A stretch of DNA of 64,000 nucleotides from Escherichia coli (lineage in GTDB: Bacteria > Pseudomonadota > Gammaproteobacteria > Enterobacterales > Enterobacteriaceae), in the NCBI RefSeq assembly GCF_003018115.1, contig NZ_CP027457.1; one strand, 5' to 3'. Below the pieces are notes generated by a model. The model was not told where the DNA came from. It made no database searches and saw only the letters and a list, made by a program, of their open reading frames with translations. Shown piece by piece: positions 17,504 to 21,824 of the stretch. Position numbers and translations under genes: made by a program. Positions within the stretch are counted from its first letter, which is position 1. Each line of letters opens with the position of its first letter.

Positions 17504-18016
17504 ATGCAATTAGATGAACAACGCCTGCGCTTTCGTGACGCGATGGCCAGCCTGTCGGCAGCGGTAAATATTATCACCACCGAGGGCGACGCCGGACAAT
17601 GCGGGATTACGGCAACGGCCGTCTGCTCGGTCACGGATACCCCTCCGTCGCTGATGGTGTGCATTAACGCCAACAGTGCGATGAACCCGGTTTTTCAGGG
17701 CAACGGCAAGTTGTGCGTCAACGTCCTCAACCATGAGCAGGAACTGATGGCGCGCCACTTCGCGGGCATGACGGGCATGGCGATGGAAGAGCGTTTTAGC
17801 CTCTCGTGCTGGCAAAAAGGTCCGCTGGCGCAGCCGGTGCTAAAAGGTTCGCTGGCCAGTCTTGAAGGTGAGATCCGCGATGTGCAGGCGATTGGCACAC
17901 ATCTGGTGTATCTGGTGGAGATTAAAAACATCATCCTCAGTGCAGAAGGTCACGGACTTATTTACTTTAAACGCCGTTTCCATCCGGTGATGCTGGAAAT
18001 GGAAGCTGCGATTTAA
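17504..18016 (+). CDS. hpaC: 4-hydroxyphenylacetate 3-monooxygenase, NADH:flavin reductase component
   Basis: 170-aa ORF 17 nt after hpaB; flavin reductase-like domain. Confidence 0.9.
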   Translation: MQLDEQRLRFRDAMASLSAAVNIITTEGDAGQCGITATAVCSVTDTPPSLMVCINANSAMNPVFQGNGKLCVNVLNHEQELMARHFAGMTGMAMEERFSLSCWQKGPLAQPVLKGSLASLEGEIRDVQAIGTHLVYLVEIKNIILSAEGHGLIYFKRRFHPVMLEMEAAI

Positions 18017-18129: not shown

Positions 18130-18408
18130 CATCCCTAAAATAACCACTCAGTTATTTACCTTACTTTACGCGCGCGTATCTCTGGCAACATCACTGCAGG
18201 ATAGCGGTCAATTTACCTCCTCAAACGCAACGCAAACCTAGAACGGCTTCGGCCTATGATTAACAAATTACTCTATGGATTTTGGTTTGCAGGAAGGCAG
18301 CAAGTGAGTGAATCCCCGGGAGCTTACAACAGTAAGTGACAGGGGTGAACGAACGCAGCTGCCGCACCTGTAAGCCAAAAGACGACGAGTAAAATGCCAG
18401 GTTTTACT

Positions 18409-20559
18409 ATGGATACGAAAAAACTATTCAAGCACATACCCTGGGTGATTCTCGGAATCATCGGTGCATTCTGCCTCGCGGTAGTTGCATTACGTCGGGG
18501 GGAGCACGTCAGCGCCCTGTGGATCGTGGTCGCCTCTGTGTCGGTGTATCTGGTGGCGTATCGCTACTACAGTCTGTACATCGCCCAGAAGGTGATGAAA
18601 CTCGACCCCACGCGCGCGACGCCTGCGGTTATTAACAACGACGGTCTGAACTACGTTCCGACCAACCGTTACGTGTTGTTTGGTCACCACTTCGCCGCTA
18701 TCGCCGGTGCTGGTCCGCTGGTTGGTCCGGTTCTCGCCGCGCAGATGGGCTACCTGCCTGGCACGCTGTGGCTGCTGGCGGGGGTAGTGCTGGCCGGTGC
18801 GGTACAGGACTTTATGGTGCTGTTTATCTCCTCTCGCCGTAACGGCGCATCTCTCGGTGAGATGATCAAAGAAGAGATGGGACCAGTACCGGGGACTATC
18901 GCGCTGTTTGGCTGTTTCTTAATCATGATCATCATCCTCGCCGTTCTGGCGCTGATTGTGGTTAAAGCCCTGGCCGAAAGTCCGTGGGGTGTCTTCACCG
19001 TTTGCTCAACCGTACCAATTGCGCTGTTTATGGGTATCTATATGCGCTTTATTCGTCCGGGGCGTGTGGGTGAAGTCTCTGTCATTGGTATCGTGCTGCT
19101 GGTTGCCTCTATCTACTTCGGTGGCGTGATTGCTCACGATCCGTACTGGGGTCCGGCACTGACCTTTAAAGACACCACCATTACCTTCGCGCTGATTGGC
19201 TATGCGTTTGTTTCCGCACTGCTGCCGGTGTGGCTGATCCTCGCACCACGCGACTATCTGGCAACCTTCCTGAAAATCGGCGTTATCGTCGGCCTGGCGC
19301 TGGGTATCGTGGTGCTGAACCCGGAACTGAAAATGCCTGCGATGACCCAGTACATTGACGGTACTGGCCCGCTGTGGAAAGGCGCTCTGTTCCCGTTCCT
19401 GTTCATCACCATCGCCTGTGGTGCGGTATCTGGCTTCCACGCACTGATCTCTTCCGGTACGACGCCGAAACTGCTGGCTAATGAAACCGACGCGCGTTTC
19501 ATCGGTTATGGCGCAATGCTGATGGAGTCCTTCGTGGCGATTATGGCGCTGGTTGCTGCGTCCATCATCGAACCAGGTCTTTACTTCGCGATGAATACCC
19601 CGCCTGCTGGCCTTGGCATCACCATGCCTAACCTGCATGAAATGGGTGGCGAGAACGCGCCGATCATCATGGCGCAGTTGAAAGACGTTACCGCACACGC
19701 GGCGGCGACCGTCAGCTCCTGGGGCTTCGTGATTTCGCCAGAGCAGATCCTGCAAACCGCGAAAGACATTGGTGAGCCTTCTGTCCTGAACCGTGCAGGT
19801 GGTGCGCCGACGCTGGCGGTAGGTATCGCTCACGTGTTCCACAAAGTGCTGCCGATGGCTGACATGGGCTTCTGGTATCACTTCGGTATTCTGTTCGAAG
19901 CACTGTTCATCCTGACCGCGCTGGATGCGGGTACCCGTTCTGGCCGCTTTATGTTGCAAGACCTGCTGGGTAACTTCATCCCGTTCCTGAAAAAAACCGA
20001 CTCTCTGGTTGCCGGTATCATCGGTACTGCGGGCTGTGTGGGTCTGTGGGGCTACCTGCTGTATCAGGGCGTGGTCGATCCGCTGGGCGGCGTTAAGAGC
20101 CTGTGGCCGTTGTTCGGTATCTCCAACCAGATGCTGGCAGCCGTGGCGCTGGTACTGGGTACCGTTGTGCTGATTAAGATGAAGCGCACCCAATACATCT
20201 GGGTAACTGTTGTTCCGGCTGTATGGCTGCTTATCTGCACCACCTGGGCACTGGGTCTGAAACTGTTCAGCACCAACCCGCAGATGGAAGGCTTCTTCTA
20301 CATGGCAAGCCAGTACAAAGAGAAGATTGCTAACGGTACTGACCTGACGGCGCAGCAGATTGCCAACATGAACCACATCGTTGTGAACAACTACACCAAC
20401 GCAGGTCTGAGTATTCTGTTCCTGATTGTGGTGTACAGCATCATCTTCTACGGTTTCAAAACCTGGCTGAAGGTGCGTAACAGCGACAAACGTACTGACA
20501 AAGAAACACCGTACGTTCCAATCCCGGAAGGCGGCGTGAAGATCTCTTCGCACCACTAA
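18409..20559 (+). CDS. btsT: Pyruvate/H+ symporter, CstA family
   Basis: Translation from MDTKKLFKHIPWVILGIIG... (716 aa), many TM segments; start placed at the second Met of the ORF-track entry. Confidence 0.9.
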   Translation: MDTKKLFKHIPWVILGIIGAFCLAVVALRRGEHVSALWIVVASVSVYLVAYRYYSLYIAQKVMKLDPTRATPAVINNDGLNYVPTNRYVLFGHHFAAIAGAGPLVGPVLAAQMGYLPGTLWLLAGVVLAGAVQDFMVLFISSRRNGASLGEMIKEEMGPVPGTIALFGCFLIMIIILAVLALIVVKALAESPWGVFTVCSTVPIALFMGIYMRFIRPGRVGEVSVIGIVLLVASIYFGGVIAHDPYWGPALTFKDTTITFALIGYAFVSALLPVWLILAPRDYLATFLKIGVIVGLALGIVVLNPELKMPAMTQYIDGTGPLWKGALFPFLFITIACGAVSGFHALISSGTTPKLLANETDARFIGYGAMLMESFVAIMALVAASIIEPGLYFAMNTPPAGLGITMPNLHEMGGENAPIIMAQLKDVTAHAAATVSSWGFVISPEQILQTAKDIGEPSVLNRAGGAPTLAVGIAHVFHKVLPMADMGFWYHFGILFEALFILTALDAGTRSGRFMLQDLLGNFIPFLKKTDSLVAGIIGTAGCVGLWGYLLYQGVVDPLGGVKSLWPLFGISNQMLAAVALVLGTVVLIKMKRTQYIWVTVVPAVWLLICTTWALGLKLFSTNPQMEGFFYMASQYKEKIANGTDLTAQQIANMNHIVVNNYTNAGLSILFLIVVYSIIFYGFKTWLKVRNSDKRTDKETPYVPIPEGGVKISSHH

Positions 20560-20567
20560 CCGTGTTT

Positions 20568-20596
20568 AGCCCCGCTTCGGCGGGGCTTTGTTCTTA
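20568..20596 (+). terminator. GC-rich hairpin followed by TTGTTCTT between btsT and yjiX; terminator or attenuator
   Basis: AGCCCCGC-ttcg-GCGGGGCT then a T-rich stretch; yjiX follows only about 20 bp later. Confidence 0.4.
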
Positions 20597-20608
20597 TCAG
20601 AGTGAACT

Positions 20609-20812
20609 ATGTTTGGTAACTTAGGACAGGCAAAAAAATATCTCGGCCAGGCGGCGAAGATGTTGATTGGCATTCCAGACTACGACAACTACGTCGAGCA
20701 TATGAAGACCAACCATCCCGACAAGCCGTACATGAGCTATGAAGAATTCTTCCGCGAACGCCAGAACGCGCGCTACGGCGGCGATGGTAAAGGCGGTATG
20801 CGCTGTTGTTAA
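20609..20812 (+). CDS. yjiX: Small DUF466-family protein downstream of btsT
   Basis: 67-aa ORF; size, position and recalled YjiX identity. Confidence 0.75.
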
Positions 20813-20822
20813 TGGAGAGAGC

Positions 20823-21779
20823 ATGAACCCGATTGCAGTTACCCTACTCACCGGTTTTTTAGGCGCGGGCAAAACCACCCTGCTGCGCCATATTCTTAAC
20901 GAACAACACGGCTACAAGATTGCCGTGATTGAAAACGAATTCGGCGAAGTCTCCGTTGATGATCAATTGATTGGTGATCGCGCCACGCAGATCAAAACGC
21001 TGACCAACGGCTGCATCTGCTGTTCGCGCTCCAACGAGCTGGAGGACGCGCTACTCGACCTGCTGGACAATCTCGACAAGGGCAATATTCAGTTCGATCG
21101 TCTGGTCATTGAATGCACCGGCATGGCCGATCCCGGCCCGATTATTCAGACCTTTTTCTCCCATGAGATTTTATGCCAGCGTTACCTGCTGGACGGGGTG
21201 ATTGCGCTGGTGGATGCGGTACATGCCGATGAGCAGATGAACCAGTTCACCATCGCCCAGTCCCAGGTGGGCTACGCTGACCGTATTCTGCTGACTAAAA
21301 CCGACGTCGCAGGCGAAGCAGAGAAACTGCGTGAACGCCTGGCGCGCATCAACGCCCGTGCACCGGTCTACACCGTCACCCACGGGGACATCGACCTGGG
21401 CCTGCTGTTCAACACCAACGGTTTTATGCTGGAAGAAAACGTCGTCAGCACCAAACCGCGTTTTCACTTTATCGCGGATAAACAAAACGATATTTCGTCG
21501 ATTGTGGTGGAACTGGATTACCCGGTAGATATCAGCGAAGTTTCCCGCGTGATGGAAAACCTGCTGCTGGAATCGGCGGATAAACTGCTGCGTTACAAAG
21601 GGATGCTATGGATTGACGGCGAACCTAACCGTCTGCTGTTCCAGGGCGTCCAGCGCCTCTACAGCGCCGACTGGGACCGCCCGTGGGGCGATGAAAAACC
21701 GCATAGCACGATGGTGTTTATCGGGATTCAGTTGCCGGAGGAAGAGATTCGGGCAGCGTTTGCGGGGTTGAGGAAGTAA
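20823..21779 (+). CDS. yjiA: COG0523 (CobW/P47K family) metal-chaperone-type GTPase
   Basis: Translation from MNPIAVTLLTGFLGAGKTTLLRHIL (P-loop GxxGxGKT), contains CxCC motif (GCICCS); 318 aa. The ORF-track start at 20739 overlaps yjiX and is rejected. Confidence 0.85.
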   Translation: MNPIAVTLLTGFLGAGKTTLLRHILNEQHGYKIAVIENEFGEVSVDDQLIGDRATQIKTLTNGCICCSRSNELEDALLDLLDNLDKGNIQFDRLVIECTGMADPGPIIQTFFSHEILCQRYLLDGVIALVDAVHADEQMNQFTIAQSQVGYADRILLTKTDVAGEAEKLRERLARINARAPVYTVTHGDIDLGLLFNTNGFMLEENVVSTKPRFHFIADKQNDISSIVVELDYPVDISEVSRVMENLLLESADKLLRYKGMLWIDGEPNRLLFQGVQRLYSADWDRPWGDEKPHSTMVFIGIQLPEEEIRAAFAGLRK

Positions 21780-21788
21780 GGGGTTATG

Positions 21789-21819
21789 GGCCGGATAAGG
21801 CGCAGCCGCATCCGGCCTG
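21789..21819. repeat. REP element between convergent yjiA and mrr
   Basis: GCCGGATAAGGCGCAGCCGCATCCGGCC read directly. Confidence 0.6.
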
Positions 21820-21824
21820 ATATT

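Follow-up and report, generated by a model that had tools for sequence, protein, structure and literature searches.

A hairpin between btsT and yjiX of Escherichia coli as a probable leaky intrinsic terminator

We identified a stable hairpin with an adjoining U-tract in the 49-nucleotide spacer between btsT and yjiX of Escherichia coli, and consider it very probable that this element is a leaky Rho-independent terminator of btsT. In E. coli K-12 an RNA 3' end lies within the U-tract, and transcripts that pass the hairpin and continue into the downstream genes are found as well. A structured spacer is present at the same position in most species of Enterobacterales that we compared. The hairpin had already been mapped and is an ordinary element of a known kind, and the junction itself is undiscussed in the literature, where the site is present only as a row in supplementary tables. 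Our literature search returned no paper that treats btsT together with yjiX, and yjiX itself is little covered.

The DNA analysed, here called the window, is a stretch of 64,000 nucleotides from E. coli (NZ_CP027457.1), and positions are counted from its first nucleotide. Features of the region around the hairpin are listed below, with the evidence on which each rests.

18409..20559, + strand: btsT (yjiY), pyruvate/H+ symporter, upstream of the hairpin (open reading frame; Pfam CstA, E = 6e-243; RefSeq btsT)
20557-20559, + strand: btsT stop codon, TAA
20560..20567, + strand: 8-nt linker CCGTGTTT from the btsT stop codon to the hairpin (sequence)
20568..20587, + strand: probable terminator hairpin, stem AGCCCCGC/GCGGGGCT, loop UUCG (fold, pattern scan, pairing probability)
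20588..20596, + strand: interrupted U-tract TTTGTTCTT, 7 T in 9 (sequence, pattern scan)
20591, + strand: K-12 RNA 3' end 4589097 (minus strand), projected to the window (Adams 2021; converted coordinates)
20597..20608, + strand: yjiX translation-initiation region ATCAGAGTGAACT, abutting the U-tract (sequence)
20609..20812, + strand: yjiX, 67-aa DUF466 protein (YbdD/YjiX family) with the C-terminus Arg-Cys-Cys (Pfam PF04328, E = 3e-27; RefSeq)
20823..21779, + strand: yjiA, COG0523-type GTPase, beginning 10 nt past the yjiX stop codon (Pfam cobW, CobW_C)
21789..21822, + strand: REP-like hairpin GGCCGGATAAGGCGCAGCCGCATCCGGCC in the gap between yjiA and the convergent mrr, distal read-through 3' end (sequence; K-12 Term-seq)

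In the list of open reading frames, the 3' neighbours of yjiA in the window are the convergent gene mrr and then hsdR.

The spacer reads CCGTGTTT-AGCCCCGC-TTCG-GCGGGGCT-TTTGTTCTT-ATCAGAGTGAACT-ATG. Eight nucleotides separate the btsT stop codon from the stem, and 21 nucleotides separate the end of the stem from the yjiX start codon (20609). The two arms, AGCCCCGC (20568-20575) and GCGGGGCT (20580-20587), form eight perfect base pairs around the loop TTCG (20576-20579). Seven of these pairs are G-C, and the UUCG loop is closed by a C-G pair. Three U residues adjoin the stem directly, and the tract as a whole (UUUGUUCUU) has seven U in nine nucleotides, broken by a G and a C. This geometry agrees with the original prediction, which described an 8-bp GC-rich stem with a T-rich tail between btsT and yjiX. 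Intrinsic terminators typically consist of a G+C-rich stem of about 5-14 base pairs, a loop of 3-8 nucleotides, and a U-rich tract of about 7-9 nucleotides. Several features that define a Rho-independent terminator are found here, namely the stem, the short loop, the adjoining U-tract, and the coding-strand orientation 3' of btsT. The imperfect U-tract fits incomplete termination. The opposite strand (AAACACGG) carries no T-run, and the element therefore works in one direction only.

The region from 20555 to 20612 has a predicted folding energy of -19.8 kcal/mol (z = -2.44), which was equalled in 2 of 200 shuffles, and the hairpin on its own accounts for -16.1 kcal/mol. The seven inner pairs have a probability of about 0.98 or higher in all contexts tried, up to 270 nt upstream. 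A pattern scan classed the hairpin as terminator-like, with eight pairs (seven G-C) and a loop of four. In the 6-kb region this generic pattern is no more frequent than expected, with five instances against 6.2, and so the pattern scan alone proves nothing. When both strands of the 64-kb window were scanned more strictly, for perfect 8-bp stems containing six or more G-C pairs, only five distinct ones were recovered; of these, the btsT-yjiX hairpin is followed by the best T tail, 6 T in 8. No second copy with four or fewer mismatches was found in the window, except for the hairpin's own reverse complement. An Rfam scan of the region returned no family at the gathering threshold over the hairpin. 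Only one match overlaps it, to CRISPR-DR32 on the minus strand, and at 24.6 bits (threshold 48, E = 0.55) we ascribe this to chance similarity with a G+C-rich palindrome.

Published maps of RNA 3' ends place a terminus at this hairpin. Both genes lie on the minus strand in K-12, with btsT at 4589129-4591279 and yjiX at 4588876-4589079. In cells grown in LB to OD 0.4, Term-seq located a 3' end at 4589097, minus strand, which was assigned the class 'primary' for yjiY and has 59,788 reads (sheet LB 0.4 of Supplementary file 1 in Adams et al. 2021, eLife e62438). The 61-nt sequence given in that table is identical to positions 20541-20601 of the window, and the mapped RNA ends ...GGGGCUUUGU, inside the U-tract and four nucleotides past the stem. 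The original prediction had anticipated a 3' end at the hairpin, and it is borne out by this terminus. The end is given only for LB at OD 0.4, not for OD 2.0 or M63 (Adams 2021), which probably reflects the timing of btsT expression. The same sheet gives a 'primary' 3' end for yjiA at K-12 position 4587866 with 31,772 reads (Adams 2021), which corresponds to position 21822 of the window, at the REP-like hairpin; the ratio of the two counts (59,788 and 31,772) is not valid as a termination efficiency. The thresholded list of bicyclomycin-sensitive Rho termination regions (Adams 2021) has no entry for yjiY, an absence that is weak evidence.

Transcripts that cross the hairpin were recovered by SMRT-Cappable-seq, in which the RegulonDB units b4354 and b4353-b4352 were both extended to b4354-b4353-b4352 (Yan et al. 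2018, Supplementary Data 3). These are the genes btsT, yjiX and yjiA, and full-length capped reads thus span all three. The split in RegulonDB implies that btsT was taken there as ending at the hairpin. The term 'extended operon' in this data set needs only one read or more and gives no read-through fraction, and the terminator table of the same study has no entry at the coordinate of the hairpin. Read-through of at least 5% was found at 75% of termination sites in E. coli (Yan et al. 2018). The Term-seq end and the spanning transcripts together indicate that termination and read-through both occur, as proposed when the hairpin was described as a partial terminator, and the co-transcription of btsT and yjiX that was then only apparent is confirmed by transcripts covering btsT-yjiX-yjiA. 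A lack of 3' ends combined with uniform read-through, which would have spoken against the prediction, is not what the public data show.

The arrangement of the locus also bears on read-through. A pattern scan of the + strand from the middle of btsT to yjiX detected no promoter-like site, and no promoter fits between the stem and the yjiX start codon because only 21 nucleotides are available there. With no promoter 3' of the hairpin, every yjiX-yjiA transcript must cross it, and some leak is therefore needed if these genes are expressed at all. We propose that the G+C-rich stem would fold in the RNA exit channel of RNA polymerase while the U-tract is being transcribed, and that a fraction of the complexes would then release a btsT-only mRNA. 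This mRNA would end in a very stable hairpin and would be shielded from 3'-to-5' exonucleases. Other polymerases would read on and produce a btsT-yjiX-yjiA mRNA that ends at the REP hairpin past yjiA, and transcription of yjiX and yjiA would be at or below the level of btsT. By the size of its leak the hairpin would set the btsT:yjiX ratio, and the leak may have been selected to do so.

To examine conservation we used one genome per species, giving 80 Enterobacterales loci. The gene btsT is followed by yjiX in all 80, and yjiA lies directly 3' in 78. Spacer lengths run from 48 to 319 nt, and the spacers are strongly structured, with folding z-scores that have a median of -4.4 and lie below -2 in 67 of 79. 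In 76 of the 79 other species a hairpin at least as strong as -12 kcal/mol ends no more than 60 nt from the yjiX start codon, and in 49 of 79 a hairpin of this strength is followed by at least five T in eight nucleotides. These T-run tallies come from a terminator-oriented scan; simply picking the strongest hairpin merged T-runs into stems and made the T counts meaningless. The hairpin is identical in K-12 and in Citrobacter werkmanii. Across the species compared, the spacers fall into the following classes.

Simple hairpin CCCCGC/GCGGGG, as in the window: Escherichia, some Citrobacter, Kosakonia, Cedecea, Rahnella, Hafnia, Erwinia
Extended hairpin ATACCCYRYATAAT followed by a run of T5-6: Serratia, Pectobacterium, Brenneria, Xenorhabdus
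Single REP-like palindrome, then TTTTTCTT: Enterobacter and relatives
Inverted REP pairs: Klebsiella, Salmonella, Kluyvera, other Citrobacter

The hairpin is absent in locus L082, and hairpins without a T-run occur in loci L071, L064/L067, L043 and L069/L073. Past the T-run, different genera share the sequence TATC[A/T]G, which is also present in both of the spacer forms found within E. coli (see below).

An alignment of 28 genomes from the simple and extended classes supports the predicted stem. Paired positions make up 98.7% of its cells, a percentage that is inflated by the choice of members with a pattern requiring pairing, although the compensatory pair types are real. Five of the eight pairs have changed on both sides among these 28 genomes, with exchanges of the types C-G/U-A, G-C/A-U and A-U/U-A/G-C. 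The covariation score is 0.504, compared to 0.245 in shuffles (the observed score was reached by 0 of 500), and it is 0.168 or lower when the partner columns are slid. The locus exemplifies a known principle, in which a terminator keeps its structure and position while its sequence changes, either through compensatory exchanges or because REP elements take its place. Four Serratia spacers (L045, L047, L054 and L061) carry ERIC-like cores (for example GTAAATCCCCAGGAGCTTAC...GTAAGTGACTGGGGTTTACG), which appear to be inserted in the loop of the ATACCCTGCATAAT terminator hairpin. These spacers are 190-319 nt long and have kept the outer stem and the T-run.

Several other explanations of the hairpin deserve consideration. 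It could be a stability or processing element only, at which exonucleases stall after decay or after a cut within yjiX, which is the way that intercistronic REP elements act in malEFG. Release sites typically lie 7-9 nt past the stem. The mapped end lies nearer to the stem than that, at the four nucleotides typical of exonuclease-trimmed ends, so that trimming is suspected and the mapped end may be a trimmed one; Term-seq cannot distinguish termination from an exonuclease stall. The spacers of many relatives, which have REP/BIME palindromes or hairpins without a T-run, point the same way, as does the cstA-ybdD spacer, where a 3' end lies at a G+C-rich hairpin without a U-tract. Moreover, loss of poly(A) polymerase (PAP I, pcnB) raises yjiY more than any other RNA (log2 4.76), and RNAs that end in terminator hairpins or REPs depend on this enzyme for their degradation (Maes et al. 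2017); the effect on yjiY could, however, be indirect, via the timing of btsT induction. A pure exonuclease barrier needs no T-run, yet one is kept after the hairpin in 49 of 79 species, and the three U adjoining the stem, with seven U in nine, are the canonical layout of a terminator. Stabilising and terminating roles are also compatible, and a stabilising role of the hairpin alongside termination is plausible. We therefore regard an element that stabilises without terminating as unlikely, and infer that termination, not trimming, produces the 3' end. Slightly less likely is a regulated attenuator, in which a ribosome or a bound protein would shift read-through into yjiX-yjiA with conditions. 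With the btsT stop codon just 8 nt before it, the stem is within the footprint of a terminating ribosome, which could mask the beginning of the 5' arm. Read-through in E. coli commonly depends on conditions (Yan 2018), but no data set shows it at this hairpin. We found no antiterminator pairing in the 270 nt upstream, where the hairpin keeps a probability of about 1, and no stretch of at least 6 nt in the 267 nt upstream that is complementary to one of the arms. Species differ widely in how far the hairpin lies from the stop codon, the loop shows no sequence conservation, and no Rfam family is found at the gathering level. As the hairpin is constitutive, with no competing fold and no Rfam match, a switchable attenuator is unsupported, and the suggestion of an attenuator made in the original prediction does not hold in the regulated sense, no competing upstream structure having been found.

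The remaining alternatives are at odds with the transcript data. If the hairpin were a complete terminator, yjiX-yjiA would be a separate unit transcribed from a promoter inside btsT. RegulonDB does have two separate units, and genomic SELEX placed a site for RpoS holoenzyme in the middle of yjiY. However, if yjiX is expressed, transcription from any promoter 5' of the hairpin has to pass it, the 21 nucleotides past the stem hold no promoter, nothing promoter-like was seen on the + strand of the 3' half of btsT, and full-length reads span all three genes. Such an arrangement is accordingly very improbable. The failure of the generic pattern to be enriched in the surrounding 6 kb (5 against 6.2 expected) would be compatible with a chance palindrome that has no function. 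Against this, only five comparable stems occur in 64 kb, covariation and cross-species structure are seen at the same position, and a 3' end mapped at the hairpin contradicts chance. The strongest evidence here comes from outside the window, from the K-12 3' end and the conserved structured spacer, and we consider a chance origin to be practically negligible. We also considered a 3'UTR-derived Hfq-binding sRNA, which found little favour; a literature search returned nothing, and the mapped tail past the stem is only UUUGU.

A leaky terminator is in keeping with systems that are already known. Leaky intrinsic terminators inside operons (Adams 2021; Yan 2018) share with the btsT element a hairpin and U-tract just past the stop codon, an in vivo 3' end in the U-tract, and some read-through into downstream genes, and we see no difference in kind. 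Intercistronic REP and BIME elements, such as the malE-malF REP and the BIMEs that act by attenuation, are a second comparison, in the same intercistronic position and with the same expected outcome of higher expression of the upstream gene than of the downstream one.

These elements stabilise upstream mRNA segments or attenuate transcription, and the REP itself is an imperfect palindrome of about 35 nt present in many copies per genome. REP or BIME sequences occupy the same btsT-yjiX spacer in Klebsiella, Salmonella, Kluyvera, Enterobacter and about 22% of E. coli. In contrast, the btsT hairpin of the window is 20 nt long, is single-copy in the window, is off the REP consensus, and has a U-tract. 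We rejected its identification as a REP, as it is unlike the REPs of the long E. coli spacer form and past yjiA, and has no second copy in the window.

The closest parallel in gene content is cstA-ybdD of K-12, in which the gene for a pyruvate transporter of the CstA family precedes that for a small DUF466 protein, with a structured spacer between them, as in btsT-yjiX. This spacer (L083:3001-3182) is 182 nt long and contains a G+C-rich palindrome and a REP, without a U-tract. Term-seq gives a 3' end at 632098, which is 84 nt before ybdD and weak, with 1,686 reads in LB at OD 2.0. The arrangement differs from btsT-yjiX in that no yjiA homologue follows ybdD. Pyruvate uptake needs both CstA and YbdD (Hwang et al. 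2018), and by analogy with that pair YjiX may assist BtsT.

Within E. coli the spacer occurs in two forms. The btsT-yjiX region was found in 5382 of 5426 complete genomes, 4202 of which (about 78%) have the 49-nt hairpin spacer. One variant that we inspected has a G to A change at 20563, in the linker, with the stem intact. About 1180 genomes (about 22%) have a long form of 117 nt, in which a REP comes first and a different hairpin, AGCCCGGA-CCT-TCCGGGCT, second, with TTTACGC and a ribosome-binding region unlike that of the short form after it. An example of this form is the following.

L001:561-677 (E. coli S21EC): long spacer form, replacing window positions 20560-20608

The sequence GGGCTTT...TATC[A/T]G is common to both forms. 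In its 3' part the long form is very similar to the spacers of Enterobacteriaceae RIT714 and Yokenella, and the short form closely resembles those of Citrobacter werkmanii and Citrobacter MGH106. Judged by sequence, the poor T-run of the long form may mean weaker intrinsic termination. It is possible, though we think it rather doubtful, that the leak is a selected setting of the amount of YjiX and YjiA made per BtsT, and that the two spacer forms represent different settings. If this were true, pyruvate uptake would be subject to a natural polymorphism of expression, and, since both forms have close counterparts in other genera, one that has been maintained or exchanged across genus boundaries. 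In E. coli BH100 (L002:53-1401) an IS3-like element of the IS1397 family lies at the REP of the long form and parts btsT from yjiX. IS1397 targets REP/BIME palindromes.

The preferred reading, one promoter and an internal leaky terminator rather than two independent units, has some consequences for the btsT-yjiX-yjiA genes. With this arrangement yjiX and yjiA should be induced along with btsT through BtsS/BtsR and pyruvate, but less strongly, which would be useful for testing whether YjiX helps BtsT in the way that YbdD is needed with CstA. Polar effects in btsT mutants, and differences between strains in the spacer, deserve checking. The practical value is otherwise small.

Additional 3' ends have been mapped upstream of the hairpin. 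Three lie within the yjiY open reading frame in LB at OD 0.4, at K-12 positions 4591157, 4590791 and 4590246, and the one that lies 122 nt into the reading frame is marked as independent of Rho, with an intrinsic-terminator score of 2.7 (Adams 2021). Assuming colinearity with K-12, the three would fall at about 18531, 18897 and 19442 of the window.

The region 5' of btsT differs between the window and K-12. Over btsT-yjiA the two are only about 94% identical in an ungapped comparison. Upstream of btsT the window has an open reading frame (17504-18016) that by eye resembles hpaC, the reductase of 4-hydroxyphenylacetate monooxygenase; in K-12 the neighbour of btsT is instead tsr. The btsT leader contains an insertion of about 124 nt (18257-18380) just 5' of the start codon, which K-12 does not have. 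By eye this is presumably an ERIC/IRU-type repeat, with the core GTGAATCCCCGGGAGCTTACAACAGTAAGTGACAGGGGTGAAC. Its region has a sub-threshold Rfam match to V_AS5 (18271-18389, + strand, 30.7 bits against a threshold of 96). The insertion is carried by about 2062 of the 5426 E. coli genomes, in which it could alter the structure of the btsT leader or its control of translation.
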